IMG/VR virus record: IMGVR_UViG_3300023106_000013
Coordinates: 1 to 56,613 of that record
Length of the DNA: 56,613 nt
Reading direction: 5' to 3' (one strand)
Source: a virus
Lineage: Duplodnaviria > Caudoviricetes
Below, in pieces: positions 2,609 through 56,515 of the stretch. Below the pieces are notes generated by a model. That model saw nothing but the letters and a program-made list of their open reading frames with translations. It did not search any database and was not told the origin of the DNA. Position 1 is the first letter of the stretch, and each line of letters starts with the position of its first letter. The position numbers and the translations under genes are program-made.

Positions 2609-2632
2609 TCAAGTTGTCCTTATGTCTGAGAT

Positions 2633-2665
2633 AAGAGAAAGGCCGGAGCGAACCCCGGCCCCTTT
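2633..2665 (-). terminator. Intrinsic terminator after capsid/decoration genes
   Basis: - strand ggccgggg-ttcg-ctccggcc followed by tttctctt. Confidence 0.75.
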
Positions 2666-2668
2666 GTC

Positions 2669-3004
2669 TTAGGTTGGGTTGGCGTTAAACGCCCCACGCC
2701 GAACGTGGACAGCCTCACCAGTCAGGATCGCAAGGCCGGGAGGGGTATAGAAACCGCCCGCGCCGGTTGCGATGGACTTGGTCGCGGGCGTCATCGTAAC
2801 CTGAGTGCCGGTAGTAGCCGTGGCTGCAATGTCAGCAGTCGCCACGACCCAGAAGTATTCACCCCCATCAACGCCGCGAACGACGCTGCCAAGCTGGTAG
2901 GAGGGTGCGCCGATGCTGTTAGCGCCATCATAGAACGCGACAGGCGCGAACTTCTGAGTAACGTCAGGACCAAGCGAGGGAGTAATGCGGAAGGGGTAAG
3001 CCAT
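2669..3004 (-). CDS. Putative capsid decoration/cement protein
   Basis: 111 aa, Gly/Ala/Thr-rich, directly after major capsid gene with strong RBS (aggaga). Confidence 0.5.
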   Translation of the reverse strand: MAYPFRITPSLGPDVTQKFAPVAFYDGANSIGAPSYQLGSVVRGVDGGEYFWVVATADIAATATTGTQVTMTPATKSIATGAGGFYTPPGLAILTGEAVHVRRGAFNANPT

Positions 3005-3019
3005 TTGTGTTTTCTCCTA

Positions 3020-4033
3020 TCACGCGGCTGGATTCGAGTCATAGAAGCGCCAGCTGTACTGAGGATTGCCCAGAACGAACTGACCTTCCCAGCCGATGAA
3101 CTGTGCGAGCGCATCTTGATTGAGCGGCATCTGACCATCACCTTCAAAGAGACGATCAAAGGCGAACTCATCGCGGTAGTACACATACAGCGAACGGCTT
3201 TCGAGGCCATAGGTTGTATTGGCTGGCATGGAAGCACGAATGCCCGAAGCCAGAACAGCATCAGCGCGACGGCCCGAACCGATGAACTCCAGAGCAGAGA
3301 ACCCGATAGCGCCAAGGCGCGTCTGGTTGACAATGCGCTGATGCGCGACCATCGAGCTTTCAAGGGCGCTGAAGTGCTCCTGCGACATGACCAGCAGGTC
3401 AGCCGAACGGTTGCCCTTCATGCGACGGCCCATGATTTCTCGAAGCATCGGCTGGATCGTGGTCGAAGTAACCTGAGTGCCAATGGTCGGGAAGGCAGAG
3501 TTTGCGTCCCAAGTGGTCGTCTGCCATTCTGGAATGGTGCGGGAGATACCGCCATACACGCCAGTATTGGTGACGATGGGAAGCGCAGCACCAAGGCCAA
3601 CCATGTCACGACCATTAAAGGACGTGCCATTGCCGTTGATGGCGATTTCCAGACCGTCATTCAGGCTTTCAGTCGCAGCCTGAACATAGGACCGAATAAG
3701 CGGAATCATCCGGTCGCCAGTGTTAGCGCGGATTTCAGTGCCGGTGAAGCTGATCGGGGCGTAGATGGCGCTGGGCTGGAACACAGCGTCGTTGAACAGT
3801 TCGATGGGCGGGTTTTCGAGGAAATCGTAGCCCGTCGCCCACTGTGTGCCCTGCTTGGCAAACTGGAGGTGATGGCGGATTTCAGGGCCGTCAAAAGAGC
3901 GGTAGTTACCCTTTTCCTTGACGGTATTGAAAACCACGTTGGAGTTGTAGACCAGTTCCTCAATGCCCGGCTTGTAATAGGCCAGAGTGGCGCTGAGGGT
4001 CTGCTGATAAGCACGCACCGGATTAATGGGCAT
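3020..4033 (-). CDS. Major capsid protein
   Basis: 337 aa after scaffold gene; biased codon usage; capsid-like segments (ESLNDGLEIAINGNG, GGISR, GNPQYS). Confidence 0.85.
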   Translation of the reverse strand: MPINPVRAYQQTLSATLAYYKPGIEELVYNSNVVFNTVKEKGNYRSFDGPEIRHHLQFAKQGTQWATGYDFLENPPIELFNDAVFQPSAIYAPISFTGTEIRANTGDRMIPLIRSYVQAATESLNDGLEIAINGNGTSFNGRDMVGLGAALPIVTNTGVYGGISRTIPEWQTTTWDANSAFPTIGTQVTSTTIQPMLREIMGRRMKGNRSADLLVMSQEHFSALESSMVAHQRIVNQTRLGAIGFSALEFIGSGRRADAVLASGIRASMPANTTYGLESRSLYVYYRDEFAFDRLFEGDGQMPLNQDALAQFIGWEGQFVLGNPQYSWRFYDSNPAA

Positions 4034-4058
4034 GTAACATTCCCTTAGGGTTTAGAGA

Positions 4059-5249
4059 TCAACCATTGACGGATCGCGCCGCCATTTTGATTGCCTCATC
4101 GAGTGACAGTTTGGCGGACTTGCGCGGGACTTCTGCCCCGTAGGAAAGTGCGCCTTTGACGGATCTACTGCCAGCCGGGTTTAGCGGCCTCTGGGCATTC
4201 GGTGCCGGGGCTACCGGCTCTTGCTGGGTATAGGAACCAACGGGGTTTATCCGTTCGGCCATGTCGTATGCTGCTTCCAAACGCTGTCGTTCAGGAAGTG
4301 TGAACGGCACTTTACCACTGTTCAGGAAAAACGCAATATCGGGCTCTAGCTCCTGATACCGTGGATGCTCTGCTTTGAACGGCGCGATGATGGAACGTTC
4401 AATCTCTGCATTACGCGCCTGCTCTCGGTCCTGCTGGGTTCCAGCAGTGAGTTGCTGAATCTGCTGCGTCAGGGTTTGGACTTGCTGCTGAAGCGCCTGA
4501 GTTTGCCGGTCTGCCTGCGTCGGAGCGGGTTGATTAGCCTGCCCCATGACATGCTGGGCATACTGCTGGGGAGTGACGCCGATGGACTGCAAAATGCGCT
4601 CGACACCAGCAGCGGGGTTTTCGCGAAGGAGCTTGTCAATGTTGGTGTAGTTTGCAAGCGCTTCCTTTACGGTTGTGCCCGCGCCCTTCGCCATCTCATC
4701 GAACTCGCGAAGCTCCTTGCGGTACTCCACGGCTTCGCGGCCCTCATCAAGGCCTTTCTCGTAGTTCTCCATCATGCGGTGCACTTCGCCGCGAACATCC
4801 GGGTTTACCCCAGCCCATGCCTCTTTGGCGCGTGGCAAGAAGTGAGCAGGAGCGCGATTGATATCCCGGCCCTCAGACGGACGAGGTTCGCCGCGTTCCT
4901 GCTCTACTTCCGCACCTTCCGCTGGGTCGCCAGCTTCGGGGTCTAGTTCTGCCTTGGGTTTGGCAGTGAATTTTCCATTATCGCCACGTTCAGGTGCTAC
5001 CTTCTCAGGCTTAGGCTCAACCTTGGCTTCTGGCTTTGCCTCTTTGGGCTCAACCTTTGGCTTGGGTTCCTTATCGGCGCTTTCCTTCGTCTCGGCTGCG
5101 GCCTGCTTTACAGCATCCTCAAGAGACATGGGCTTTTCAGGCTCAACGGGCTCTGGGGCTGGAGCATCAGGGCGAAACTCTGCGCTCCCCGGAGCAGGCG
5201 CATCATTGTCGATAACCGTGGAGAGAGGTTCGGTATTCAATTCGGTCAT
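4059..5249 (-). CDS. Capsid scaffolding protein
   Basis: Acidic Pro/Glu/Lys-rich N-terminus with RGDNGKF motif, Gln-rich coiled coil, LEAAYDMA motif; precedes capsid gene. Confidence 0.8.
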   Translation of the reverse strand: MTELNTEPLSTVIDNDAPAPGSAEFRPDAPAPEPVEPEKPMSLEDAVKQAAAETKESADKEPKPKVEPKEAKPEAKVEPKPEKVAPERGDNGKFTAKPKAELDPEAGDPAEGAEVEQERGEPRPSEGRDINRAPAHFLPRAKEAWAGVNPDVRGEVHRMMENYEKGLDEGREAVEYRKELREFDEMAKGAGTTVKEALANYTNIDKLLRENPAAGVERILQSIGVTPQQYAQHVMGQANQPAPTQADRQTQALQQQVQTLTQQIQQLTAGTQQDREQARNAEIERSIIAPFKAEHPRYQELEPDIAFFLNSGKVPFTLPERQRLEAAYDMAERINPVGSYTQQEPVAPAPNAQRPLNPAGSRSVKGALSYGAEVPRKSAKLSLDEAIKMAARSVNG

Positions 5250-5281
5250 TTTGTTTCCCTTGTCTGAGTTGGGAGGTTTAG

Positions 5282-5641
5282 TTATTCGCCAAGGCGACCG
5301 GCGTTAAGATCGGCAAAGGCCCGTTCTGTCGCCTCACGTATCAGGTTCTCATCTGGCTTGCGGTTCGCCTGCGCTTGCTGCTTGTAGGACTGGTCATCGC
5401 CTATCTCCACAAAAGTAGCCCCCTGAGGGTTTCCACCGGGCTTGTAGCTCTCACGCATAGCGGCTTTGGATGTGTACATTTGACCGTCAGCCATGCTCAT
5501 GAGCGCGGGTTGCTCATCGCTAGTGTTGATGCGCGGGAGCGGGGGCGGGTTGCGATCATCGTATGTGCGATAAACGATTGGCTCAACCTCGCCAGTATCG
5601 AGATTCAAGAAACCGCCCGGAACTGATTTATACCGGGTCAT
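5282..5641 (-). CDS. Phage head-region hypothetical protein
   Basis: 119 aa, SMADGQMYTSKAAMR...VEIGDD motif; ATGA coupling. Confidence 0.7.
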   Translation of the reverse strand: MTRYKSVPGGFLNLDTGEVEPIVYRTYDDRNPPPLPRINTSDEQPALMSMADGQMYTSKAAMRESYKPGGNPQGATFVEIGDDQSYKQQAQANRKPDENLIREATERAFADLNAGRLGE

Positions 5642-5769
5642 ACGAACCTCACTGCATATTGCCCGAACTTGATAAGCCCGTAGGCCGCTGCGATCACGAG
5701 ACTACGCATAAAAACCCACATACCTATTGCGCGGAGCTTTTCGCCGTCTGAGAGCGAATGTTTGTCCAT
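5638..5769 (-). CDS. Small membrane protein (43 aa)
   Basis: [43 protein letters not shown]; coupled to both neighbours. Confidence 0.5.
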   Translation of the reverse strand: MDKHSLSDGEKLRAIGMWVFMRSLVIAAAYGLIKFGQYAVRFV

Positions 5770-6461
5770 TATCCTAGTGCCTGATCCGTTGCTGATGTAA
5801 TTGTTGCTGTCGTTCCTGAGACGCGGCGAAGGGCCCAGAACCAGCCTGTAGGAACCCATGCTGACAACTGATTGCGCTGCCCGATGCCTAAGCCGATAAC
5901 CAATGCAATGCCTGTCACGGAAGCGCGGAATGTAGCTACCGCCGTTCCGCCCGTTCCTGCTGCTACCTGAGCCTGAACGGGGCCAATGCGAAGCTCTACG
6001 GTATCGGCCTGCGTACCAATCACTGTCACTGTATACGCAGTGTCGATCATGGCGCTGATAAAGCTAGGTTTCGTCGGTACAGATGCCGCGTAAGCCGTGC
6101 CAAAGGCGGGCGTTACCACAGTCGGAGCGGAGACGATGGCGGGGCCAGCGGGGCCGGTTGCGCCATTAGTCCCATTCGTGCCGTTTGTTCCTGCGGTGCC
6201 TGTGGCTCCGGTGAGCCCTATCGGGCCTTGTGAACCAGTATCCCCTTTAGCGCCAGTTGCTCCCGTGCTTCCTGTCGCGCCAACGGGTCCGGCTGGGCCG
6301 ATGGGTCCGATTGAACCAGTAGGTCCAGATGGTCCAGTGTTCCCCGTAGCCCCAACCGCACCCGTTGCTCCGGTATCGCCCTTATCACCTTTGACTCCCT
6401 GCGGGCCTTGGGCTCCATTCCTTCCGACAATCGGGTTCTGTACGCTCCAGTGGTTTATCAC
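5769..6461 (-). CDS. Collagen-like fibre protein
   Basis: About 30 Gly-X-Y triplets followed by a beta-rich C-terminal domain. Confidence 0.85.
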
Positions 6462-6775
6462 AGCGCACCAATCTCATAATCGACAGTGCCAGCAGCCGAC
6501 ATACCTGGGTCCATCGTAATTTCGAAAGCTTCACCCGGGCCATTCTTGTAGGTGTTCTGGCTGTCTGAGCTTTTGTATCGAATCTGCCCGCCATCAGTCA
6601 CGTAGTATGGACCAGCTACTAGATTGCTTGCCGACCAAAACCACACCCTAAGGCTAGTTGGAGCGGAATGAGCGAACGTCAGGAATAGCTCACGCGCTAG
6701 GAAATACTCGCTTGTTCCCGGCGTGAAGATAACGTGAGGACCGGGGCCGGTAATGTCTATGCTTTGACGTGACAA
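6458..6775 (-). CDS. Hypothetical virion-associated protein
   Basis: 105 aa beta-rich ORF, RBS, GTGA overlap with next gene. Confidence 0.6.
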
Positions 6776-6784
6776 TGCACTCTC

Positions 6785-7300
6785 CTAAAAGCCAAAGAGC
6801 AATTCATAGACTGCGGCAGGGGTGAGATTGCCAACGCCAGCCGCAAACCGTACCCACGTATTGCCGCCGATCAATTCAGTCTCATATGAGGTAATTGGGA
6901 ATCCGCCGATGGAAACCTTTAGGCCCTGAAGTGCTAGGAGGTAGTTGCTTTGGAACACCGCCAGATAGCGTCCGCTTGCAGTGTCATTGTAGAATGACAG
7001 GAGCGTGGTTGAGGCTGTAGGTTGCGCACTTATAGAGCCGAAAGCGGGCTGTGGAAGGGTTGCGGCACCCGTTGAGTACCCAACATGCTGCCCGTTCGTT
7101 CCCGCTGTCATGTTGATTGTCTGGAAATTCCAGTTAACCGGCGTGAAGCCTTGAACGATGAATGGCGTTCCCTTGTTATCCAGCACGATAGGGAGCCCAA
7201 AGCCATTATCTGCAATCGACATTACCGGCGCGTTGACGGCTGTTGGCCTGACTGGAACACCGATGCCATTTGTTGCGATCACTACAGGGAAACCAGCCAT
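6785..7300 (-). CDS. Hypothetical virion-associated protein
   Basis: Start MAGFPVV coupled by TAATG; repeated A(T/D)NG(I/F)G(V/L)P motif. Confidence 0.6.
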   Translation of the reverse strand: MAGFPVVIATNGIGVPVRPTAVNAPVMSIADNGFGLPIVLDNKGTPFIVQGFTPVNWNFQTINMTAGTNGQHVGYSTGAATLPQPAFGSISAQPTASTTLLSFYNDTASGRYLAVFQSNYLLALQGLKVSIGGFPITSYETELIGGNTWVRFAAGVGNLTPAAVYELLFGF

Positions 7301-8013
7301 TAGCTCCAAATCCCGTATGATGCATTGCTATGGATAAGCTGCCATTGCGTTTCAGCGAGACTGTAAATGAACTGGAACAACAGCGTCTTGCCCGTAACCG
7401 TCGAGGTTCGCAGATCAATCGAGGTAAAGGCGTTATATGCTACATTCCATGTGATTGCGCGGTTTGTGCCGTTGTCTCGAATACGAATGATGAGCGATTG
7501 ACCATCAACCGGGATGCCAGTTGGGGCTGCAATCGTCAACGCCCCCGACTGTGCAGAGATGGCTGCAATGTCAGTATTGTTGGCGTTGGGGGTTAGAGTT
7601 GCAGTTGTGGCGACCGTAACAAGGCGGGGCGCTAGATAGGTCGGGATTGCAGGCACCCCACTCAGATCAGCATAAGCGCCGCTAGTGGCAACCGCTGCTA
7701 GCCCGGTGATGGTGCTAGCGGATTGCGTCCCCGTCTGGTTAGCGCGGGCAAAGGCATCCGAGTTCTTATTCTGCGGATCGTACACACTCTTGAGCATGTC
7801 CCCAGCGCCAGCATTTACCCAAGTAAAATCGAGGTTGGCGTTACTGAGCTTGCCGAGAACCTGCCCTGTTAGGCCACCAGCAGGGACAGCCTGCAACATC
7901 GATGCAAGATCGGTACGAATGACTAGGTTTCGATCCACCACGCCAGCGCCGGGGCCTATGGGCAATGTGGACAGATAGTCTCTGAGAGTGCGGCTAGGCA
8001 GTGGCGCGGCCAT
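7300..8013 (-). CDS. Fibre-like virion protein
   Basis: GGLTGQVLGKLSNANLDFTW, GDMLKSVYDP, GLAAVATSGAYADLSG fibre motifs; C-terminal beta domain. Confidence 0.7.
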   Translation of the reverse strand: MAAPLPSRTLRDYLSTLPIGPGAGVVDRNLVIRTDLASMLQAVPAGGLTGQVLGKLSNANLDFTWVNAGAGDMLKSVYDPQNKNSDAFARANQTGTQSASTITGLAAVATSGAYADLSGVPAIPTYLAPRLVTVATTATLTPNANNTDIAAISAQSGALTIAAPTGIPVDGQSLIIRIRDNGTNRAITWNVAYNAFTSIDLRTSTVTGKTLLFQFIYSLAETQWQLIHSNASYGIWS

Positions 8014-8189
8014 TAGGTAGCCTCCCCCATGAGATAGTTGCCGTTATCGTCGGTGAGGTAAACGCCGTTATCGTCCGTGAGAAGAGCCATGCCGGGAGGA
8101 ATGGACGGAACAGCGCCGCCTAAAATGCCAGGATAAGCCAGCCTCACATTAAGCATAAGCCCGCGACGGCCTTTGGTCTTAACGCTCAT
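8013..8189 (-). CDS. Small protein (58 aa) with LTDDNGxYL repeat, absent from ORF track
   Basis: MSVKTKGRRG...LLTDDNGVYLTDDNGNYLMGEAT*; overlaps portal end, TAATG-coupled downstream. Confidence 0.65.
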   Translation of the reverse strand: MSVKTKGRRGLMLNVRLAYPGILGGAVPSIPPGMALLTDDNGVYLTDDNGNYLMGEAT

Positions 8190-10515
8190 TTGTCGGACCC
8201 TTTGGCTTCATGGCTGCAACCATAGCTGTCTGTCGCGCCTGTTCGGCCTGCTGATCTAGCTTGTCGTACTCAAGCTGCGTATCAATCGCCAACTCCTCGC
8301 GCTTGAACTGCTGTTCGGCTGCAAACCGCGCATCCTCAGAGATTTGACGCTGTGCCTCTAGGGCCGCTTCTGCATCGAGAGAAAGCTGCGTTGTTTGGAT
8401 ATCCGCGCCAAGCTGGGCCTCTTCACGCGCCACCGCAACCTGAGCATCCAACTGCTTGGCCTGCGCATTGCCCTCAGCCTTGATCTGTTCCTTCATGGCC
8501 TCAGTCTGGGGCTTAGAGGCAATCTCTTGCTCCTTGAGGCCAATCTCACGTTCGCGCAAGGCCATCTCGGCGGTCTTATACATGCCGTCCTGTTCGACCT
8601 TCTTAGTCTCAATCCCGACCATGGCCTTCTTGTACTCAGCCTCAGCGGCGTTCTTTTCCGCATCAGGGTTGGGCTGAGGAGGCGTGTTGCTCATCGTATC
8701 AATCCATTCATCAATAGACGACATGAGCGCACGGGGCGGGCGGTAAACGTCGAGATTCCACTTGAGGATTTCACCAGCAGCAGCCGAACCCCCACTCTGG
8801 ATCATCGGCATAAGCGCCTGCATGCCTGTAGCCAGAGCGGCAAGGAACTCATTGCGCATCTGCTTCTCGGCCATCTCATCGGGGTAGATCGTGGAATCTG
8901 TCTCGATATCGAAAATGAACGGGTCGGTCTTGGTATCGTTCAGAAGCTCTTTGACCATTTCAACGGTAACAGCAGCAGCGGATTTCTTCACCGCCTCAGT
9001 TGCCTCGGAAATGATCTGCTGTGTCTGCTGCTGGGCTTGCTGAGCGGCCTCTTGGGCCTTCTGAGGGTCTTGAGCGGCTAACTGCTCAATCTGCCCTTCA
9101 ATCTCATCGATCTGCTCTTTGGCCTTGGTTTCAATCTCTTTGATTTCGCGCTTCACTTCCGCATTGGTAGGAAGCTGCATTTGCGCCATCTTGAGAAGCG
9201 TATCGATATTGAACTCTTCAGCGAATATCTCAACCATGATGCGGCCTGCATCACGGGCAATGCGCTCTAGGCCCTTCACTCGGTCCCGGCTGCGGGCTGA
9301 TGTGTGCTGTACCTTGATCTGCTGAGCACCAAGCGTTTCGTTCGGGTCACTATCCCCGCGCTGAATATCAGCTACGCCAAGAAGCTCTTGAACGTTACCA
9401 ATAAGCTCACGGCGCTCCTCAACAGCAGCTAGGATGGTCTGTGCTACTTGGTCAATCGGGAGCCATTCAACCAGCGGGCCAGAGCCGGTGTTCATTGAAG
9501 CGATAGGCACGATGATAAAGCTGTCGCCCGAATGCTTTCGATAAGCAGCTTGAACGGCCTCGCCTAGATCGGAACCCGCAGCGGGAACAATACCCGCCAC
9601 AATTAGCTGTTCCGCAAGGTCATGGATTTTCTGGGTGAGGAGGTTGATCGTCTCAAGCTGGCCCTGGATATAAACCATGTCAGGCACAGGGACGAGGCTA
9701 CGGCGCTGGCGTGTGCCATAGGCAGGCTCAGGACATGGGAAGAATCCCTTGAGCTTCAGATGTGGCTCTTCACGTTCCAGAATGTCGGGAAGGCCATCGC
9801 AAATCCAGATGACCTTCTTTTCGTTGCGGTCCCAGATTTCCCATACAGCAGCTTTATTGACGGTATCTTTGACGCCGTTAGTGCTGGAATCTCTCGCCTG
9901 CTCAGTGCGCTTCTCAGTGTAGGTCGCATCATCTGCAACGCCTTCACCGAACCGATCACGCATTTCCTTCTTGGTCATCCAAGCGCGACGGGCAACCCAG
10001 CTAACCTCAGTCCACTTACGAACTGGATCATGCGCGAAATCATCGCGATCCAAGTCCTCAATGCAGACCTTTTCCTCTCCATCATCCTCGTAGCTTACCC
10101 AAAGCTGCCCACGCGAGTTGATCGCTAGATCATCACGGACGCCAAGCATGGAAGAATTGATGTTGGTTAGGTCGAACCCTGCAATTGCAGAACGCTCAAG
10201 CAATTCAGCCGTTACGCGCTTGACCGGCTTACGGTCCTGAAACTTTGTCGTTACAACCGGAATGGGCGGGCGGGAATAGATAGACGGCTTGATAACCTCC
10301 ATCGAAGCCCAGAACAGATCATACTCACGGTCTACAATCGCCATCTCTGTAAGCGTAATGCCAGATAGGCTTTGGAGGCCGGAGTAAACACGGTCGATCT
10401 GGTCGCACCGATGAAACCAGCGGTCAAATTCCTTGCGATAGCACTCAATGGCCTCCAGATAGGGAGCCGCTGATTTCGGATCGACGCTGTGAGGCTCGCT
10501 ATCGCCAAATGCCAT
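8179..10515 (-). CDS. Portal protein (strain A allele)
   Basis: 778 aa; portal-like motifs (VWEIWD, GFFPCPEP, DIETDSTI) and long C-terminal coiled-coil barrel; downstream of terminase. Confidence 0.88.
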   Translation of the reverse strand: MAFGDSEPHSVDPKSAAPYLEAIECYRKEFDRWFHRCDQIDRVYSGLQSLSGITLTEMAIVDREYDLFWASMEVIKPSIYSRPPIPVVTTKFQDRKPVKRVTAELLERSAIAGFDLTNINSSMLGVRDDLAINSRGQLWVSYEDDGEEKVCIEDLDRDDFAHDPVRKWTEVSWVARRAWMTKKEMRDRFGEGVADDATYTEKRTEQARDSSTNGVKDTVNKAAVWEIWDRNEKKVIWICDGLPDILEREEPHLKLKGFFPCPEPAYGTRQRRSLVPVPDMVYIQGQLETINLLTQKIHDLAEQLIVAGIVPAAGSDLGEAVQAAYRKHSGDSFIIVPIASMNTGSGPLVEWLPIDQVAQTILAAVEERRELIGNVQELLGVADIQRGDSDPNETLGAQQIKVQHTSARSRDRVKGLERIARDAGRIMVEIFAEEFNIDTLLKMAQMQLPTNAEVKREIKEIETKAKEQIDEIEGQIEQLAAQDPQKAQEAAQQAQQQTQQIISEATEAVKKSAAAVTVEMVKELLNDTKTDPFIFDIETDSTIYPDEMAEKQMRNEFLAALATGMQALMPMIQSGGSAAAGEILKWNLDVYRPPRALMSSIDEWIDTMSNTPPQPNPDAEKNAAEAEYKKAMVGIETKKVEQDGMYKTAEMALREREIGLKEQEIASKPQTEAMKEQIKAEGNAQAKQLDAQVAVAREEAQLGADIQTTQLSLDAEAALEAQRQISEDARFAAEQQFKREELAIDTQLEYDKLDQQAEQARQTAMVAAMKPKGPTNER

Positions 10516-11034
10516 TTACGCTGCAATCACGGCTGCGGTTGGAAGGCTGGTAGCAGATAAGCTGCCATTGGAGTTTGTCGCAGTGACGCGCACCCGAATG
10601 ACCTGACCAATCTGCCCAACAATGGGAGTATAGGTGTTAGCCGTTGCCCCGACGATATCAACGTTGTTCGCTGTCCACTGTCGAGCGTATGTGTTACCCG
10701 TTCCAGTGAACGTGCCCTGCGTACTCGTGAGAACCTGCCCAACCTGCGCCGTGCCCATGATCGTCGGGAGAACCGTATTGCGAGGAGTACTCACCGCCTT
10801 GGCAATTACGACTGCAACACCCGGAACAATCGACCCCTCAGCTAGCAGATCAGCCGATACGGTCCCCGCTGTAATGCCAGAGGCAAGGTTCAGCGCATCG
10901 AGAGGGACTAGGCCGCTTTCGAGCAGTCTGTTGATGTTCCCCGTACCGGCTGCGATCTGTCGTTGAATCTCTAGCCCTAGCTCAGCAGACACGCCAAGGG
11001 ATTGGAGGCTTTGGGCAAGGTCAAATACCGGCAT
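10516..11034 (-). CDS. Virion protein with C-terminal Ig-like domain
   Basis: PRNTVLPTIxGTAQVGQVLT...YARQW...YTP...IRVRVTATN; start fixed by comparison with copy 2 (172 aa). Confidence 0.7.
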   Translation of the reverse strand: MPVFDLAQSLQSLGVSAELGLEIQRQIAAGTGNINRLLESGLVPLDALNLASGITAGTVSADLLAEGSIVPGVAVVIAKAVSTPRNTVLPTIMGTAQVGQVLTSTQGTFTGTGNTYARQWTANNVDIVGATANTYTPIVGQIGQVIRVRVTATNSNGSLSATSLPTAAVIAA

Positions 11035-11093
11035 TGGTCCACCTATGTCGAACGATTGAATCCTTTTACCACGCGTTTGACGAACGAACAAGG

Positions 11094-11133
11094 CAAACAA
11101 AAGCCCCGTCACCGGGGGATGGCAACGGGGCTC
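11094..11133 (-). terminator. Intrinsic terminator
   Basis: - strand agccccgt...acggggct followed by tttgttt; conserved in copy 2. Confidence 0.7.
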
Positions 11134-11160
11134 TAGGAGGTCAAGAAGCAGAGGAGACGA

Positions 11161-11442
11161 TTACTTATCGTTCTTCTTCTCGTCCTTGTCAACGGGTTCA
11201 TCGGCGCTATCATCACCATGCGCGGCCTGTTCTGCAAAGCCGTACTGGTTTGGATTAAGCTCAACGTGGAACTTGCCCAGATTTGGCTTCTGTCCCTGTT
11301 GGTTCTTCATCCGCTTGTTGGCCTCGTCAGCTTCGTACTGCTCGACCTTGCGGCGGTCTGCGTCGGAAATGTCTGAGGGCAGTGTGGAAAGATCGCCGGG
11401 GATGTAGCCACCAGCTTTGAGGTCTTCGATGAACTTGGTCAT
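11161..11442 (-). CDS. Hypothetical protein (93 aa)
   Basis: Protein identical in both copies despite nucleotide changes. Confidence 0.8.
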   Translation of the reverse strand: MTKFIEDLKAGGYIPGDLSTLPSDISDADRRKVEQYEADEANKRMKNQQGQKPNLGKFHVELNPNQYGFAEQAAHGDDSADEPVDKDEKKNDK

Positions 11443-11473
11443 GACACAGTTCTCCTTGGGTTTGGGTAACGTC

Positions 11474-11713
11474 CTAGAAAGGAGTTAGTTCGATCACATC
11501 ATCAAACTCTGTCCATTGGTCGTAATGAGCTGGCAACAGAATACCGCCATCCCGCGAATAGAACCCTCCCTGCGATGTGATAGGCTTTCCCCCTATGTTC
11601 ATTTCATAGGGGTCTTTCCAGCTTACCCTATTAACCCTGAATGGGGACGAATTCTCACGCGCAATAATCATTCTGTCCTTTGGTGCAGACGACATTGACT
11701 TCCATTCGTTCAT
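11474..11713 (-). CDS. DUF551-like small protein (strain A only)
   Basis: EWKSMSSAPKD start; ATGA overlap with terL stop. Confidence 0.6.
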   Translation of the reverse strand: MNEWKSMSSAPKDRMIIARENSSPFRVNRVSWKDPYEMNIGGKPITSQGGFYSRDGGILLPAHYDQWTEFDDVIELTPF

Positions 11714-13290
11714 ATCCGTCTCCCGCCCTTCTTCGTTCTCTTGCGCTCTTCGTATGTTGGAACCCTGGATTTACCGTAGTTCTCAGGGGCTATGACTTCC
11801 GCTGGCGCTGGCAATGGCTTACCGGCCAGCATCCGGTCAATCAACTGACCAACCAACCCCAAGGCGTCAACCTGATCGTCATGGACGCCAACGGGGAAAC
11901 TCATCATCTCACTAATCAGGTCTGAGATAAAGGGCGCATCCTTGTGAATGTAGAGGCCACGCGTTGCAATCAACCCACGGAATGACTGCGCACGAATGGC
12001 CTTGTCGCCTCTGGTGGGGAACTGCTCTCTTGCCACGTAAGCCCCACGGCTAAGCTGCGCTCTGGTTAGGAATGGGCCAACGCCGGATTTGATCTGCCCT
12101 GTTTCCTCAGCCCAGCCTATCGGAGCCCATTTCAACACTAGATCACAGAACGCCTCAACCCATACATCAGAGCTTGCCTGCGCCCGCCATAGATCGAGGA
12201 GCCAAGGCTTCCCCTCTGGATCAAGGCCAACAGCCGCGTGGACCGTATAATCACCACCGTCGCTTGTCACAGCATAGTCAGAGCCGCCATAGACGCGCAT
12301 AGACGCTCTATCGGGCAGGCTGTCGGCTAGGTGTATCCATTCGCGTTTGAAATAGTCGCCGGTGTCGGGGGATGGACGCTGTTGAAACAAGGCCGACCAT
12401 GTGCGCGGCAATCTCTCAAACTTAGCCCAATGGCTTGCGGGAAACCACTCAGGCCAGATGTAATCGCCAATCTCACGGCCTAGAGGATCATCGGACCGCT
12501 CACACTTAGCCGCAAGGCAAATGACTTCCCAATCTTCACCATCACGGCCCCGGATAATGCCGCTCTCACCTGCATAGTTCTCCGGCAGGATTGAGCCGCT
12601 GAGGTCGCCATTGTGCCAGCGGGTGTTGATGATGATAAGCGATCCTCCAGGCTTGAGTCGCGTTAGAACGCTTTCCTCATACTCGGCAATGGTCCGCTCT
12701 CGAATAACCTCACTGTCCGCATCTTGACGGCCCTTGAACGGATCATCCACCACAACGCAGTCAGCTCGGTTGCCGGTAATGCCAGACAGAATACCGCCTG
12801 ACATATACTCAGAGCCATTGCCCAATGCCCACTCGTCAGCAGCAGAGCTTTCAGCGGACAAGCCAGTGCCGAACAGCGTGGTATATTTGGGCTGCTTGAT
12901 GATCGAGCGAGTTCGCCGCCCAAACTTGCGGGCCATGTCCGAACCGTAGGACACGCCAATCATGCGGTAGTTTGGTATCTTGCCCATGATCCATGAGGGA
13001 GCAACGACAGAGCCGTATGTGGACTTTGCACTACCGGGCGGCATGAGCAGCATGAGCCTGCCGTTGGGCTTCTCAATGCACCGCTGAATAGCGTCTAGGG
13101 CTAGGATGTGATGTTCAGCTAGTTCCGTCTCAACATGGGCGTTAGCCGTGTCGGAGTTTTCGTCTTGCTCGACTAGAGGCGCACCTGGAACATCAATGTA
13201 CCGTGCATACTCAGTTAAGCTGCGACGGGCTCGGCGGCGTCTCAGTAGCTCCTGCGCTGCTTCCTGCTGCGATGGCTTCAAGTTCATCAT
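11710..13290 (-). CDS. terL: Terminase large subunit
   Basis: Walker A MPPGSAKST, Walker B VVVDDP, NTRWH, nuclease acidic motifs GSDYA and HDDQVDA. Confidence 0.95.
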   Translation of the reverse strand: MMNLKPSQQEAAQELLRRRRARRSLTEYARYIDVPGAPLVEQDENSDTANAHVETELAEHHILALDAIQRCIEKPNGRLMLLMPPGSAKSTYGSVVAPSWIMGKIPNYRMIGVSYGSDMARKFGRRTRSIIKQPKYTTLFGTGLSAESSAADEWALGNGSEYMSGGILSGITGNRADCVVVDDPFKGRQDADSEVIRERTIAEYEESVLTRLKPGGSLIIINTRWHNGDLSGSILPENYAGESGIIRGRDGEDWEVICLAAKCERSDDPLGREIGDYIWPEWFPASHWAKFERLPRTWSALFQQRPSPDTGDYFKREWIHLADSLPDRASMRVYGGSDYAVTSDGGDYTVHAAVGLDPEGKPWLLDLWRAQASSDVWVEAFCDLVLKWAPIGWAEETGQIKSGVGPFLTRAQLSRGAYVAREQFPTRGDKAIRAQSFRGLIATRGLYIHKDAPFISDLISEMMSFPVGVHDDQVDALGLVGQLIDRMLAGKPLPAPAEVIAPENYGKSRVPTYEERKRTKKGGRRI

Positions 13291-13528
13291 CCGTTAGCGC
13301 ATTGAGCCGGGACTGAATAACGCCGCTCAACTCTACCTGCTGCATGGGCTTGCCGTCTACACGATCAGCCACTTCCTTGATGGCCCAGCTTTCACCCTCT
13401 AGTGCTTTGGATACAAGGACTTCTGCCACTTCACGCAGTTTAGTCTCACCCGTTGCGCCTTTGGCAGTGAGGGCGATGTTGAGCATGTTGGAGAAGCTGC
13501 GTTCTTTTGGAGGGCGACCACCAGCCAT
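13211..13528 (-). CDS. terS: Terminase small subunit
   Basis: GGRPP...LVSKALEGESWAIKEVADRVDGKPMQ...LTDDELEAIA; overlaps terL start. Confidence 0.75.
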   Translation of the reverse strand: MAGGRPPKERSFSNMLNIALTAKGATGETKLREVAEVLVSKALEGESWAIKEVADRVDGKPMQQVELSGVIQSRLNALTDDELEAIAAGSSAGATETPPSPSQLN

Positions 13529-14305: not shown

Positions 14306-14578
14306 CTATTGGTTGGCTTTGGAACGGATGGCGTCCGCTGCGGCGCAAGTTCCTGCTAACCAATGGGGCGTTTCGTGGTCATGCCGAACTGTCTCAGCTA
14401 TCTTAGCGCATTCCTCGTAAGCTTGGGAGCGGGCTTGGAGGATGGCATAGGAAATGTATTCATCAATCTCCCTCTCTATTTGAGAGGCATATGGCTCGCC
14501 TATTTTTGGGTCAAATATTGAAACCCTTGCTCCTAGCCACAACCGATCCACTTTCACACCATATGGCTTATTTTTCAT
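14306..14578 (-). CDS. Hypothetical protein
   Basis: YEECAKIAE...AADAIR motif common in phage accessory ORFs. Confidence 0.6.
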   Translation of the reverse strand: MKNKPYGVKVDRLWLGARVSIFDPKIGEPYASQIEREIDEYISYAILQARSQAYEECAKIAETVRHDHETPHWLAGTCAAADAIRSKANQ

Positions 14579-15101
14579 TCTTGTTTTCCCCTAGAGTGGC
14601 GATAAAGGCTTTGGCGGCATGCCATTCTGCTCGGCCTGCGTCTTCAGAGCAAACCCCTTCCAGCACCTTCACTGCTTCGGATAGACGGGCTTGGGATGCG
14701 TTAGCGCGGGTAACAGCGTGTTTCACGGCGAGCGGTAAGCCCTCAATCATTCCCGAGCTATCAGGTCCAAGATGGGCTGAACACTGGTGAATGCATCCAG
14801 CTTGTCGGTAGTTGGATTCTATTGCAAGATCACGCTCCTTCTCAAGGGTAGCGATACGTGCGGCTTGCTCCTCTATGAGGGTGTTGGAGGCGTCGTCTTG
14901 CTTCCGATCATTCCACGCCTGAGACGCAGCCAACTTCGATTCGCACCATCCTATTGGATAATTGTTTCTGCCATGACAGTGGCAATCAAGACAGAACACA
15001 TGCCATGCATAGAGCATGACGGGCTTATCTTCTGATTCGTCCTGCCTGAATACAAGGTCAGCCCCTCCGCAAAACGGGCACGGCTTTAGTTCCTCACTCA
15101 T
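14568..15101 (-). CDS. Lar (restriction alleviation)-family Zn-ribbon protein with C-terminal extension
   Basis: MSEELKPCPFCGG...CLDC...AASQAWNDR. Confidence 0.7.
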   Translation of the reverse strand: MSEELKPCPFCGGADLVFRQDESEDKPVMLYAWHVFCLDCHCHGRNNYPIGWCESKLAASQAWNDRKQDDASNTLIEEQAARIATLEKERDLAIESNYRQAGCIHQCSAHLGPDSSGMIEGLPLAVKHAVTRANASQARLSEAVKVLEGVCSEDAGRAEWHAAKAFIATLGENKNEK

Positions 15102-15547
15102 TCCTCGTTCCTCTCTTCTGTGGTGGTTTGGATAGAGGGCTTGGGACGACGAAGGATACCCCTGCGGTGTTCGCGCATATACTCGCGCATCCAAGCCTTC
15201 TTATCGAATTTGGGTGCCGGAGCTGGGGTCGAACCAGCGTTGATGGCGTCAAAGGCCACTGTCCTGCCATTAGACGATCCGGCATTAGTATCGACGGCCT
15301 CTATGCTTCCCACCGGTTTGACCCCTTTCGGGTCGGCCTGTTTCCCCGTCAACAGCGCCGTCGATTGTGTATGGACCTCTTTTCGAGGCGGCAATGCTGA
15401 CACATCACTCTTTGGCGTAACCGGCCTGTCAGGGCTTGGAGTGCCTATCCTAACTTTGGTGAGACGATCAGGCCTCCACCCGACTGGCTTCTTAGGGCAG
15501 TCGAGCCAATTATGGGCGGGGCTTTTGCAGTACTCACAATTCTTCAT
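15098..15547 (-). CDS. Zn-knuckle / basic-helix protein (149 aa) containing an in-frame tRNA
   Basis: CEYC-x4-H-x4-C N-terminus and FDKKAWMREYMREHRR C-terminal motif; homologous to 56240..56515. Confidence 0.7.
   Translation of the reverse strand: MKNCEYCKSPAHNWLDCPKKPVGWRPDRLTKVRIGTPSPDRPVTPKSDVSALPPRKEVHTQSTALLTGKQADPKGVKPVGSIEAVDTNAGSSNGRTVAFDAINAGSTPAPAPKFDKKAWMREYMREHRRGILRRPKPSIQTTTEERNEE
15211..15284 (-). tRNA. tRNA-Gln (anticodon TTG) with encoded CCA
   Basis: TGCCGGA TC GTC-TAATGGCAG-GAC A GTGGC-CTTTGAC-GCCAT CAAC GCTGG-TTCGACC-CCAGC TCCGGCA C CCA: full cloverleaf, 74 nt, U1-A72. Confidence 0.93.
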
Positions 15548-15589: not shown

Positions 15590-15630
15590 TAAACAGAAAC
15601 CCCCGACATGATCAGTGCCGAGGGTTTCCG
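15590..15630 (-). terminator. Intrinsic terminator upstream of the tRNA-containing gene
   Basis: - strand gaaaccctcggca...tgtcgggggtttc followed by tgttt. Confidence 0.65.
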
Positions 15631-22130: not shown

Positions 22131-22601
22131 CTACATCAACACAATGACAGGTTTGCCGCCAAGCTTCTCGATAGCGGCGTTGAGGTGTCCTAGATGAAGC
22201 CCTGCATCAGGATCAATCCAGATCAAGCGCTCATCATCGGTGAATTTCACATCATCGAACGCAACCCAATCTGTGACTTCGGGATGGCGATGGAGCCAAT
22301 CCTTAACCGCAAGATCGCGTGGCATGTCAGGGTATTTAGTCGCTAGGTCCGTTTCATGAATATGGTCACGATCAAGGCCTTGTTTCTCTAGCGCAACGTC
22401 GATATCGTCAGTATCAATAAACGGGCGGTTATGCGTGGTATTGAATACAACCTTCGCGCCAGTCCGCTTGCAAAGCTCCTGAATGACGGCAACAGTTGTC
22501 TGCGGGAACCGCCGCTTCCAAGACGCCATGCTGTCCACGAGGAAGAAGCTCGCGGGGATCATTGGACCATCGATATCCAAGAAGATCACCTTCTCAGCCA
22601 T
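22131..22601 (-). CDS. HAD-family phosphatase (Swiss-Army-knife RNA-repair-like HAD domain)
   Basis: KVIFLDIDG...WVAFDD...IDPDAGL. Confidence 0.75.
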   Translation of the reverse strand: MAEKVIFLDIDGPMIPASFFLVDSMASWKRRFPQTTVAVIQELCKRTGAKVVFNTTHNRPFIDTDDIDVALEKQGLDRDHIHETDLATKYPDMPRDLAVKDWLHRHPEVTDWVAFDDVKFTDDERLIWIDPDAGLHLGHLNAAIEKLGGKPVIVLM

Positions 22602-22602
22602 T

Positions 22603-22875
22603 CTATTCTTCCTTCTCTGGATTGTGTGTAACCGTAGGCATGGGTTGCCAATGGGTCGGCTGGATATCTGGTTCTTTGTAGTCAGTGCCTGAATAGTCCT
22701 CCCGCTCAATAACCCGCTCACCATCCCAACTAGAACACCACTTCTTTCCGTACCATGCGATTGTCCATGGGCCATAGACGGTTGGCTTTTCCCGAAACCC
22801 GTAGTCCTTAACGAACACACCGATGATCTCCGTCCCGTCTTTCGGTGCCGTCTCAATATCCTGCCATTCGCTCAT
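22603..22875 (-). CDS. DUF551-like protein
   Basis: MSEWQDIETAPKDGTEI...PTHWQPMP. Confidence 0.8.
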   Translation of the reverse strand: MSEWQDIETAPKDGTEIIGVFVKDYGFREKPTVYGPWTIAWYGKKWCSSWDGERVIEREDYSGTDYKEPDIQPTHWQPMPTVTHNPEKEE

Positions 22876-45620: not shown

Positions 45621-45680
45621 TCAAGTTGTCCTTATGTCTGAGATAAGAGAAAGGCCGGAGCGAACCCCGGCCCCTTTGTC

Positions 45681-46016
45681 TTAGGTTGGGTTGGCGTTAA
45701 ACGCCCCACGCCGAACGTGGACAGCCTCACCAGTCAGGATCGCAAGGCCGGGAGGGGTATAGAAACCGCCCGCGCCGGTTGCGATGGACTTGGTCGCGGG
45801 CGTCATCGTAACCTGAGTGCCGGTAGTAGCCGTGGCTGCAATGTCAGCAGTCGCCACGACCCAGAAGTATTCACCCCCATCAACGCCGCGAACGACGCTG
45901 CCAAGCTGGTAGGAGGGTGCGCCGATGCTGTTAGCGCCATCATAGAACGCGACAGGCGCGAACTTCTGAGTAACGTCAGGACCAAGCGAGGGAGTAATGC
46001 GGAAGGGGTAAGCCAT
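45681..46016 (-). CDS. Putative decoration protein (copy 2)
   Basis: Same protein as 2669..3004. Confidence 0.5.
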   Translation of the reverse strand: MAYPFRITPSLGPDVTQKFAPVAFYDGANSIGAPSYQLGSVVRGVDGGEYFWVVATADIAATATTGTQVTMTPATKSIATGAGGFYTPPGLAILTGEAVHVRRGAFNANPT

Positions 46017-46031
46017 TTGTGTTTTCTCCTA

Positions 46032-47045: not shown

Positions 47046-47070
47046 GTAACATTCCCTTAGGGTTTAGAGA

Positions 47071-48261: not shown

Positions 48262-48293
48262 TTTGTTTCCCTTGTCTGAGTTGGGAGGTTTAG

Positions 48294-49787: not shown

Positions 49788-49796
49788 TGCACTCTC

Positions 49797-54453: not shown

Positions 54454-54462
54454 GATAAGCTC

Positions 54463-54675: not shown

Positions 54676-56243
54676 ATCCGTCTCCCGCCCTTCTTGGTTC
54701 TCTTGCGCTCTTCGTATGTTGGCACCCTGGATTTACCGTAGTTCTCAGGAGCAATGGCTTCCGCTGGCGATGGCAAAGGCTTGCCTGCAAGCATCCGATC
54801 AATCAACTGTCCAACCAAACCCAAGGCGTCAACCTGATCGTCATGGACGCCAACAGGGAAGCTCATCATCTCACTAATCAGGTCTGAGATAAAGGGCGCA
54901 TCCTTGTGAATGTAGAGACCGCGCGTTGCAATGAGACCACGGAATGACTGCGCACGGATGGCCTTGTCACCTCGGGTTGGGAACTGCTCTCTTGCAACAT
55001 AAGCCCCACGGCTAAGCTGAGCTCGTGTGAGGAATGGGCCAACGCCGGATTTGATCTGCCCTGTTTCCTCAGCCCAGCCTATCGGAGCCCATTTCAGCAC
55101 AAGGTCACAGAACGCCTCAACCCAAACATCAGAGCTCGCCTGTGCCCGCCATAGATCGAGCAGCCATGGCTTACCCTCTGGATCAAGGCCAACGGCGGCG
55201 TGGACCGTGTAATCGCCACCGTCGCTTGTCACTGCATAGTCAGAGCCACCATAGACGCGCATTGAGGCTCTATCAGGCAGGCTATCGGCTAGGTGTATCC
55301 ATTCGCGCTTGAAATAGTCGCCAGTGTCAGGCGAGGGCCGCTGTTGGAACAAAGCCGACCATGTGCGCGGCAATCTCTCAAACTTTGCCCAATGGCTTGC
55401 AGGAAACCACTCAGGCCAAATGTACTCGCCAATCTCACGTCCCAACGGATCATCAGAGCGCTCACACTTGGCGGCAAGACAGATAACCTCCCAGTCCTCA
55501 CCATCACGGCCCCGGATGATCCCGCTCTCGCCTGCATAGTTCTCTGGCAGGATTGACCCACTAAGATCGCCATTGTGCCAGCGGGTGTTGATGATGATCA
55601 GTGACCCTCCAGGCTTGAGGCGCGTTAGAACGCTTTCCTCATACTCGGCAATGGTCCGCTCTCGGATAACCTCGGAGTCCGCATCTTGACGGCCCTTGAA
55701 CGGATCATCCACCACAACGCAGTCAGCACGGTTGCCGGTGATGCCAGACAGGATGCCGCCCGACATATACTCGGAGCCGTTACCTAGCGCCCACTCGTCA
55801 GCAGCAGAGCTTTCAGCGGACAAGCCAGTACCGAACAGCGTGGTATATTTGGGCTGCTTGATGATCGAGCGAGTTCGCCGCCCAAACTTGCGGGCCATGT
55901 CCGAACCGTAGGACACGCCAATCATGCGGTAGTTTGGTATCTTGCCCATGATCCATGAGGGAGCGACAACGCTGCCGTATGTGGACTTTGCACTACCGGG
56001 CGGCATGAGCAGCATAAGCCTGCCGTTGGGCTTCTCTATGCATCGCTGGATAGCATCTAGGGCTAGGATATGATGCTCGGCCAGTTCCGTCTCGACGTGA
56101 GCGTTAGCCGTGTCTGAGTTTTCATCCTGCTCGACTAGCGGTGCACCAGGAACATCGATGTACCGTGCGTAGTCGGTTAGGTTCTTGCGAGCCTTCCGAC
56201 GACGCAGAAGTTCTTGAGCGGCTTGCTGGGGAGTTGGTGTCAC
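54672..56243 (-). CDS. terL: Terminase large subunit (strain B allele)
   Basis: Same motifs as copy 1; different first ~20 residues. Confidence 0.95.
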   Translation of the reverse strand: MTPTPQQAAQELLRRRKARKNLTDYARYIDVPGAPLVEQDENSDTANAHVETELAEHHILALDAIQRCIEKPNGRLMLLMPPGSAKSTYGSVVAPSWIMGKIPNYRMIGVSYGSDMARKFGRRTRSIIKQPKYTTLFGTGLSAESSAADEWALGNGSEYMSGGILSGITGNRADCVVVDDPFKGRQDADSEVIRERTIAEYEESVLTRLKPGGSLIIINTRWHNGDLSGSILPENYAGESGIIRGRDGEDWEVICLAAKCERSDDPLGREIGEYIWPEWFPASHWAKFERLPRTWSALFQQRPSPDTGDYFKREWIHLADSLPDRASMRVYGGSDYAVTSDGGDYTVHAAVGLDPEGKPWLLDLWRAQASSDVWVEAFCDLVLKWAPIGWAEETGQIKSGVGPFLTRAQLSRGAYVAREQFPTRGDKAIRAQSFRGLIATRGLYIHKDAPFISDLISEMMSFPVGVHDDQVDALGLVGQLIDRMLAGKPLPSPAEAIAPENYGKSRVPTYEERKRTKKGGRRI

Positions 56244-56515
56244 TTGGCAGCACGACGCTTGCGCATGTACTCACGCTGGTACGCTACCCGGTCAAACGTT
56301 CCGTTCTTTGCCTTATCTCGTCCGCCTGTCTCGGGAATTGGCGTGACACTTCTCGCCACGTCAGACCGTTCTTTACGGGGTATCGATGGCCTATCAGCTT
56401 TGGCTCTTGGTTGTGCCTGTGTGGGCTTGGCATCAGAACTTCCCACCTTCGCGGCAAATTCATTACAAAGGCCATAGTGGCGTTCCTTACAGATTTTGCA
56501 AAGGGGCTTTTCCAT
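56240..56515 (-). CDS. Zn-knuckle / basic-helix protein (91 aa) inserted between terS and terL
   Basis: CKIC-x3-H-x3-C; FDRVAYQREYMRKRR; GTGA-coupled to terL. Confidence 0.75.
   Translation of the reverse strand: MEKPLCKICKERHYGLCNEFAAKVGSSDAKPTQAQPRAKADRPSIPRKERSDVARSVTPIPETGGRDKAKNGTFDRVAYQREYMRKRRAAK

Follow-up and report, generated by a model that had tools for sequence, protein, structure and literature searches.

A tRNA-Gln gene lies within a small phage gene

The window analysed here is the 56,613-nucleotide (nt) stretch that makes up positions 1 to 56,613 of IMG/VR virus record IMGVR_UViG_3300023106_000013 (Duplodnaviria; Caudoviricetes). On its minus strand an open reading frame (ORF) of 149 residues (15098..15547) encloses, in frame and on the same strand, the gene for a complete transfer RNA (tRNA), tRNA-Gln(UUG), at 15211..15284. 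The encoded protein begins with a CX2CX4HX4C zinc knuckle (CEYCKSPAHNWLDC; 15497..15538), continues into a predicted disordered linker composed largely of RNA genes, and ends in a predicted basic C-terminal helix. The conserved tail motif KFDKKAWMREYMREHRR lies at 15161..15211, and its first base is the last base of the tRNA CCA. Just upstream of the tRNA, the linker also contains a putative decayed copy of a second structured RNA (15290..15365). The ORF stop codon overlaps the start codon of a Lar-like restriction alleviation gene (14571..15101, minus strand; PF14354, 1e-11; phrog_599, 6e-11) in an ATGA sequence at 15098..15101.

A single tRNA was found by ARAGORN in the entire window: tRNA-Gln with anticodon TTG (15250-15252) at 15211..15284 (-). 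Rfam model RF00005 matched 15214..15284 (-) with 56.5 bits (gathering score 29, E 1.5e-9) and was the only family to reach its gathering score in the window. The minimum-free-energy fold of 15211-15284 is a cloverleaf with four stems, a 7-nt anticodon loop and a T-loop, and the molecule ends with a U1-A72 pair followed by C at the discriminator position and an encoded CCA. The ORF reads the tRNA as residues 89-112 of 149 (AGSSNGRTVAFDAINAGSTPAPAP); of the three sense frames through the tRNA, one contains two stops and two are open, and the ORF uses one of the open ones. The CAA codon accounts for 257 of the 799 Gln codons in the window ORFs, a proportion that says little without the host.

Intron-like removal of the tRNA is unlikely because 74 is not a multiple of three, and exact excision with rejoining of the flanks would shift the frame. 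Phage attachment sites (attP) typically contain the 3' part of a tRNA gene and have an integrase gene nearby; here the tRNA is complete, and no integrase was detected among the 66 window ORFs scanned (E<=1e-5).

The 149-residue ORF is conserved as a protein-coding gene

Of 47 candidates from a word-indexed search, 17 are homologues at E<=0.01, and a profile search of 1.84 billion representatives gave 167 matches at E<=1e-3, 59 of them at E<=1e-10. Family members share an N-terminal Cys/His knuckle, a variable linker and the tail KFDKKAWMREYMR..R, and relatives that have no tRNA likewise carry knuckle and tail in one single ORF. Differences between homologues fall mainly at synonymous sites at both ends of the gene: over 26 knuckle codons compared between the window and locus L003 the proportion of nonsynonymous differences (pN) is 0.13 and that of synonymous differences (pS) is 0.57, and over 10 pairs of tails pN is 0.00-0.15 versus a pS of 0.18-1.13, most differences in the tail codon alignment being at third positions. 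Taken together, these comparisons indicate that the 149-residue ORF is a real protein-coding gene.

AlphaFold2, run with the family alignment, returned predicted local distance difference test scores of ∼80 at residues 1-30, below 50 at residues ∼31-110 and ∼85 for a helix at residues 116-131; the linker of about 80 residues is thus predicted to be disordered. No Pfam family matches the ORF at E<=0.1. The knuckle spacing fits zf-CCHC (PF00098), the profile of which was not matched, and relatives vary in spacing. The combination of a zinc knuckle with an arginine-rich helix suggests that the protein binds nucleic acid. Neither a distant DNA search nor a protein search matched the locus in the named-phage collection.

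The tail also occurs outside this gene architecture. Some other small proteins carry the motif FDKKAW.R.YMR..R as a tandem pair at the N-terminus, and it is also attached to many small phage proteins whose N-termini are unrelated; P0051, P0063, P0065, P0068, P0073, P0076, P0092 and P0104 are the proteins in question. The motif has the appearance of a portable basic module.

A first-pass annotation of this DNA, made from the letters alone, had described a complete 74-nt tRNA-Gln with CCA inside a 149-residue ORF that it took to be real, ATGA-coupled to the next gene, with C as the discriminator. The structural searches, the stop-free frame, the low pN at both ends and the single ORF of tRNA-less relatives, the Lar-like gene beginning in the overlap, and the U1-A72, C, CCA terminus bear it out on these points. 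It had also pointed to a tRNA-less homologue at 56240..56515 (-), a 91-residue ORF with a Cys/His knuckle and the tail FDRVAYQREYMRKRR, which is ATGA-coupled to the large terminase gene in what we interpret below as a second strain copy. Here the tail stands, 9 of 15 residues being identical over those 15 residues only (BLASTP, E 5e-5 for the pair), but the Cys/His residues are shared merely as a pattern; similarly, the short strings DRP, SDV and PRKE occur in both proteins, but in a different order.

Nested tRNAs recur in relatives of the gene

Scans with the tail motif confirmed four loci out of 112 matched stretches in viral contigs and at least four out of at least 597 in metagenome contigs; in genome contigs the tail protein pattern matched 66 stretches, none of which was confirmed. 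A DNA pattern for FDKKAWM returned only three loci, all found before. In all eight tail-motif loci (seven distinct) one open frame runs upstream from the tail into the N-terminal region, and a Cys/His knuckle is present in six of the seven distinct loci, with none in L005/L008. Three of these loci contain a tRNA. L002, a 93% relative of the window, has a nested tRNA-Gln; L004 has a tRNA-Gln that agrees with the window one in both codon position and frame; and L009 has a nested tRNA-Trp nearer the N-terminus. In two additional loci found by DNA motifs, L011 (tRNA-Trp) and L197 (tRNA-Lys), the tRNA starts a few bases after the same linker motif and is again in frame.

The family loci for which DNA was available number 16 (the window, L002-L007, L009, L011-L014, L016, L021, L024 and L197). 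ARAGORN placed a tRNA inside the ORF in six (the window, L002, L004, L009, L011 and L197), the tRNA being free of stops and the frame preserved in 6/6, and in all 16 the stretch from knuckle to tail is uninterrupted by a stop or restart. As a check on chance, the sense frames of 44 distinct phage tRNAs were inspected, and 47 of the 132 were free of stops. A single open frame across a tRNA is therefore unremarkable, and it is the recurrence in relatives that is remarkable. In contrast to the nested family, 33 of 39 tRNAs in the fetched DNA outside it lie in no open frame; the other six were counted under a lenient test (any open frame with at least 90 nt upstream and at least 60 nt downstream), several of them marginally. 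Related contigs also contain free-standing tRNA arrays.

Translated tRNAs can be recognised in the family proteins as well. Fifteen of 156 contain a stretch of 17 or more residues that matches the translation of a real tRNA, and P0006, P0016, P0127 and P0134 have two such stretches each; in P0127 the two BLAST-supported tRNA-like segments are accompanied by two T-arm-like stretches identified by eye. The same Gln-type tRNA peptide is also found in the linkers of proteins of another kind, P0014 and P0016, which end in a Cys-rich domain; P0016 carries a GapR-like domain.

A further linker stretch was observed in tRNA-less relatives, which share the sequence ...LAGAVED.DR.P just before the tail (L003 1948-2016 region, L009, P0007, P0011, P0017). 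In L003 its DNA contains a GCCGGT...ACCGGC hairpin, and it may be a remnant of another RNA insert.

The nested tRNA evolves as an RNA

The tRNA-Gln genes of the window and L004 are identical at 48 of 74 bases (65%). In spite of this divergence 20 of 21 stem pairs are kept, seven of them with both sides changed in a compensatory manner, whereas the encoded peptides are dissimilar (AGSSNGRT... versus ASSPSGKA...). Because the pairs are kept with compensation while the peptide changes freely, the nested tRNA appears to be under RNA-level selection within a frame that is merely kept open. The comparisons, including those of the knuckle and tail, indicate that both the cloverleaf and the reading frame are under selection.

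These results strengthen the proposal of the first-pass annotation that a disordered linker carries RNA cargo: the ends are constrained, the linker between them is predicted to be disordered, relatives carry different tRNAs in frame in the same linker, and the tRNA shows compensatory evolution. That annotation suggested counting homologues that hold a tRNA with the frame preserved, and named stops or frameshifts across the tRNA in homologous loci as the sign of an error; the tally here is six in 16 loci, with none of the six interrupted. It missed the second RNA element in the linker and the two-strain make-up of the record, to which we return below.

A second RNA element in the linker is a putative remnant of an elbow-mimic RNA

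Two linker motifs of the family, KSTAARKDV and AGTQALPVDTN, are conserved at the nucleotide level, and their outer ends are complementary. Viral loci numbered 18 with a 20-nt pattern for the 3' motif and 79 with a 19-nt pattern for the 5' hairpin; the latter pattern also located 26 loci in bacterial genomes. Of the 79, 73 have within 450 nt a 3' strand able to pair with the 5' strand, with no more than one mismatch in eight, and in 67 a 5-bp hairpin also abuts that 3' strand. The paired sequences vary widely: 38 different terminal 8-mers occur among the 79 loci, and the abutting hairpin stem is found as GCCGG/CCGGC, GCGGG/CCCGC, GCAGG/CCTGC, GCTGG/CCAGC, GGTGG/CCACC and GTTGG/CCAAC. In a 40-sequence alignment 93.8% of cells are paired, compared with 25-43% when partners are slid, and 142 double-change cells are seen versus 15-37 with slid partners; none of 500 shuffles reached the observed score. 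A looser DNA pattern matched 119 stretches; of the 80 examined, about 10 have the full hairpin, mostly at known loci, and the rest look like chance.

The 5' half of the element comprises one strand of the terminal stem (7-19 bp), a 2-base spacer and the near-invariant hairpin GCACG-GA(A/T)GGA-CGTGC. The 3' half follows a variable middle of ∼40-150 nt and consists of a hairpin with an 8-9-nt loop (T-loop-like core TCRA) and, directly after it, the 3' strand of the stem. The predicted layout corresponds to a tRNA that lacks the anticodon arm, and we refer to the element as the elbow-mimic RNA; most copies have no CCA. The closest known RNAs are the Y RNA-like YrlA of bacteria and phages (RF02553) and the tRNA-like domain of transfer-messenger RNA (tmRNA). 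The features of the elbow-mimic RNA that invite this comparison are the missing anticodon arm, a T-loop-like hairpin with a UCRA core that directly adjoins the 3' stem strand, and, 2 nt after the 5' strand, a D-like hairpin whose loop includes GG. The elbow-mimic RNA is set apart from both by its 7-19-bp stem, its T-like loop of 8-9 nt, its near-invariant hairpin and the usual lack of CCA. Among 17 loci searched with Rfam 15, those two models included, only tRNAs were matched, the element itself giving no match at E<=1 or E<=5, and the ARAGORN tmRNA search was also negative. No match to the exact string of the hairpin was found in a literature search, and a search for tRNA-like phage RNAs, in which subscription journals were thinly covered, gave nothing matching the element. 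It is probably an undescribed RNA family that is not in Rfam 15.

A covariance model of the element, R1, detected full-length copies in 17 of 22 earlier loci. Of the 26 bacterial-genome loci, 12 score at least 50 bits, 10 score only 23-36 and four give no match, and the Streptomyces-type matches are accordingly doubtful. Those of at least 50 bits are mostly from Alpha- and Betaproteobacteria, with additional metagenome-assembled genomes labelled Planctomycetaceae, Deltaproteobacteria and Dehalococcoidia. Full-length copies are also present, unannotated, in cultured phages: in Caulobacter phage DMCA (PQ480021.1; L255 1389-1531) a copy of 51.6 bits lies between transposase and integrase genes, and in Komagataeibacter phage phiKX1 (LC644975.1; L256 378-531) a copy of 61.2 bits lies ∼115 nt after tRNA-Met. 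The likewise unannotated element of phiKX2 gave the same 27-nt blastn match as phiKX1.

Most copies are free-standing, with one or two per contig. Nearby tRNAs, at a distance of up to 1.2 kb, accompany 15 of the 72 distinct elements and share their strand in 15/15; in five cases a tRNA starts 3-9 nt after the element. Genes flanking the free-standing elements show no common theme: 16 of 115 ORFs have a Pfam match, to 15 families, the P22-like portal occurring twice. Two copies with different terminal stems were observed on one contig in three instances, L185/L209 and L213/L214 (IMG/VR) and L250 (Sphingomonas sp. Leaf32).

The window appears to carry a decayed copy of this element. At 15290..15365 (-) a 9-bp closing stem (ATCGACGGC / GCCGTCGAT), assigned by fold and position, surrounds 58 nt from which the T-like hairpin has been deleted; the terminal stem ATCGACGG/CCGTCGAT lies at the same place in the ORF as in relatives and is followed by ACTAAT and then by the tRNA, which begins five bases after the element. 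In the same protein family R1 scores are 75.6 bits for L003, 66.9 for L004 and 33.1 for L007, and L002 gives no match. Because its position and closing stem are common to L003 and L004, we file 15290-15365 as a putative decayed positional homologue and not as a member of the R1 family. The close relatives L002 and run X2 contain an extra in-frame stretch here with a T-arm-like hairpin; it measures 24 nt (eight codons) by ORF length, and in the alignment of X2 to the window it appears as a 25+2 nt insertion at 15295/15296. By this comparison the window element illustrates the fate of such an RNA when RNA-level selection is lacking, its hairpin having been lost by an in-frame deletion absent from L002 and X2.

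One type of element lies consistently in reading frames

Elements with a TCGAxGG/CCGTCGA stem differ from the remainder in their relation to coding sequence. The KSTAARKDV frame is free of stops in all 18 distinct copies, compared with 1/18 and 3/18 for the other two frames, and in 16/18 this frame stays open for 60 nt or more beyond each end; the 18 copies share ancestry, so these counts are not independent events. Among all other elements the three frames are open in 17, 12 and 20 of 54 and run on in four of 54. The host ORFs of the TCGAxGG type include knuckle-and-tail genes, GapR-like genes with a Cys-rich end (PF10073; L027, L193) and others without a family; a few are short and may not be genes. 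This type of element had no match in the named-phage collection.

In one IMG/VR contig (L014, open frame 999-1763 (-)) the element sits inside a knuckle-and-tail gene and is itself interrupted, its 5' and 3' modules being separated by an in-frame endonuclease ORF. The endonuclease ORF matches phrog_2340 (3.4e-20) and the HNH family phrog_1271 (2.1e-5) and has no Pfam match; the arrangement looks like a homing-type insertion into a conserved element.

Rickettsia palindromic elements, said to have been described by Ogata et al. in 2000, are reportedly inserted in frame in protein genes. They resemble the TCGAxGG-type elements in being short, with complementary ends, and in lying in frame in residue-tolerant regions of unrelated genes. 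The elbow-mimic RNA differs from them in having one or two copies per contig instead of many, strong RNA-type covariation, and mostly free-standing loci that resemble RNA genes and lie beside tRNAs.

A proposed model: protein and tRNA as alternative outputs of one transcript

The reading we favour, and consider reasonably probable, is that the 149-residue ORF is a real gene whose disordered linker houses two sense-strand RNA genes, with protein and tRNA as alternative outputs of each transcript. A linker that tolerates almost any residues is a place where in-frame, stop-free RNA genes can reside, and selection would maintain both the cloverleaf and the reading frame. An unfolded transcript under ribosome traffic would be translated through the tRNA to give the full protein, with the ATGA overlap handing ribosomes on to the Lar-like gene. 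A transcript in which the cloverleaf has folded would be cut by RNase P and 3' trimming enzymes to release tRNA-Gln, leaving the messenger RNA (mRNA) in two fragments, of which the 5' one would lack a stop codon and the 3' one a start. Each transcript would thus yield either protein or tRNA. Such competition between translation and tRNA excision, which the first-pass annotation had also suggested, is plausible and is consistent with established tRNA maturation and with the model printed for selB/selC (PMC8124441).

Several observations weigh against this reading. Nested cases are few, with about four independent tRNA placements, and three of the six nested loci (L002, L004, L009) came from a protein-level search. 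Bacterial tRNA-Gln usually has a U1-A72 pair and G73; the window tRNA has C73 and the L004 tRNA-Gln U73, in place of the G typical for glutaminyl-tRNA synthetase, which leaves charging of the C73 tRNA-Gln in question. Sequencing runs included one probable source run and one relative; RNA libraries share 5-7% of words with the locus, and run contigs cover parts of it and show no transcript ends. A consensus scan called no sigma-70-like promoter between the terminator-like hairpin at 15594-15630 and the ATG of the ORF. The knuckle is missing from homologues P0004, P0006, P0008, P0009, P0015 and P0017, which could be frame-broken forms or contig-edge fragments. Lastly, the window copy of the elbow-mimic RNA (15286..15369 -) scores only 6.9 bits (E 5) with R1.

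That last score bears on the idea that the tRNA is a relic, a former tRNA gene that now contributes only linker codons. The adjoining element, with its T-like hairpin deleted, has decayed in the same gene, so RNA cargo here can become plain linker; the discriminator is not G, and the tRNA-less relatives manage without a tRNA. We nevertheless regard a relic as unlikely, given a 56.5-bit cloverleaf with four stems, a 7-nt anticodon loop and CCA, in which 20 of 21 pairs and seven double compensatory changes have survived 35% divergence from L004 while the peptide changed freely. Even less probable, to the point of being barely credible, is that this is not one gene at all and that a chance frame happens to be open over a tRNA between two small genes or in non-coding DNA. 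Open tRNA frames are common (36% of those inspected) and the ORF has no Pfam match, but knuckle and tail are unseparated by a stop or restart in 16/16 family loci, tRNA-less relatives keep both ends in one ORF, pN is well below pS at both ends, and 59 proteins match at E<=1e-10.

To each of two further explanations we assign a small chance, marginally greater than that of a relic. The element and the tRNAs might mark a site of module exchange or homing at which an open frame reflects survivorship and the RNA products are irrelevant. This would account for TCGAxGG-type elements lying in one frame within unrelated ORFs (knuckle-and-tail, GapR-like and others), for the endonuclease ORF in L014, for the transposase and integrase genes around the DMCA copy, and for run X4, in which exactly these stretches show mosaic replacement. 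It accounts poorly for the RNA-like covariation of the stems (93.8% versus 25-43% paired; 142 versus 15-37 double changes) and for elements that are mostly free-standing and co-oriented with nearby tRNAs in 15/15 cases, and the window offers neither an integrase nor the tRNA 3' half typical of attP. Alternatively, protein and tRNA could be expressed independently, each from a transcript of its own, as would be the case with a tRNA promoter within the ORF; the nesting would then serve to save space and keep coupling without any competition or regulation. Compact ATGA-coupled gene chains would favour layouts that keep ribosomes running to the next gene. Against this, a consensus scan, itself a weak test, called no promoter-like site in 15285-15547 (-), and a full-length mRNA would still contain a foldable tRNA precursor, some processing of which would be hard to avoid.

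A broader version of the alternative-output reading can be put forward only tentatively, and we would give it well under an even chance. It holds that the linker is a cradle for RNA genes, that the elbow-mimic RNA and tRNAs became coding in one lineage, that transcripts toggle between mRNA and RNA precursor, and that the protein may act on its own RNAs. Under the same proposal the elbow-mimic RNA would lead tRNA arrays in many phages that have not been cultured, in three or more cultured ones from Alphaproteobacteria and in mostly alpha- and betaproteobacterial prophage-like loci, and the small zinc-knuckle, arginine-rich host proteins would probably be RNA-binding.

Phage tRNA arrays are normally intergenic. 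The nested tRNAs resemble ordinary phage tRNA genes and arrays in ending with CCA, in being co-oriented with the operon and in often occurring several in a row. A literature search for tRNAs nested in, embedded in or overlapping ORFs, thin on subscription journals, offered a single precedent, in Alphaproteobacteria, where selC (tRNA-Sec) lies inside the selB ORF (Mukai 2021, Int J Mol Sci 22:4605, PMC8124441). It is a bioinformatic case in which tRNA processing is modelled to produce a non-stop mRNA, making the two products alternatives. The article describes a whole tRNA on the sense strand of an ORF and read in frame, a host ORF stop that overlaps the next ORF start, and a remnant tRNA in some relatives, all features shared with the phage gene, which is likewise known from sequence alone. 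There the tRNA forms a C-terminal extension of the protein that binds it, in cellular genomes (PMC8124441). In the phage case, by contrast, the tRNA is internal and followed by a conserved tail; the tRNAs are ordinary elongators (Gln, Trp, Lys), one to several in number, and accompanied by a second, non-tRNA RNA; and there is no known functional link between the 149-residue protein and tRNA-Gln. Relative to selB/selC, the nested tRNA is new in its phage setting, its internal linker position, its apparently interchangeable ordinary tRNAs and its compensatory evolution.

If both products are made, a single strand of one DNA stretch would act both as the gene for a structured RNA and as coding sequence for a protein, and would provide a ready-made switch between mRNA and RNA precursor. 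Annotation pipelines forbid such overlap or silently favour one product. The case is recurrent, with different tRNAs in the same linker and compensatory evolution, and a 450-bp construct makes the question testable; processing and function of the elbow-mimic RNA can be studied directly in the cultured Caulobacter and Komagataeibacter phages.

Make-up of the record and neighbouring features

Comparison of the 56.6-kb record with itself showed that 1-11444 recurs at 43013-54455 with 97.7% identity and that 11703-13217 recurs at 54664-56179 with 91.3% identity. The record therefore exceeds one genome length, two strain variants of a ∼43-kb genome probably having been joined by assembly. The slot upstream of the large terminase differs between the strain copies: one has a 105-residue ORF (13211..13528) and the other the 91-residue knuckle-and-tail ORF (56240..56515), to which the former is unrelated. 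With such a make-up, the ORF at 56240..56515 may represent another strain's allele instead of a paralogue. In the Protein Atlas the 91-residue relative matches only 'hypothetical protein' viral clusters. The large terminase shows 72-76% identity to its counterparts in Brucella phages of the Tb group and in a single phage that carries the label Microcystis, and the window has a GapR-like gene; the host is probably an alphaproteobacterium.

In a consensus scan a terminator-like hairpin of 15 pairs followed by a T-rich tail was called at 15594..15630 (-), 47 nt upstream of the ATG of the 149-residue ORF, from which we infer that this ORF probably heads a transcription unit. The segment 15573-15715 (-), which holds the 15-bp terminator-like stem, recurs at ∼93-95% identity in contigs from unrelated runs, two RNA libraries among them, where other sequence has taken the place of its flanks; a conserved element with a regulatory or RNA role is possible. 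Elsewhere in the window, 22134-22856 (-) encodes a 241-residue protein with a HAD_SAK_2 domain (3.5e-15), a HAD of the 'Swiss Army Knife' RNA-repair type, which places an RNA-repair-flavoured gene in this tRNA-carrying phage.

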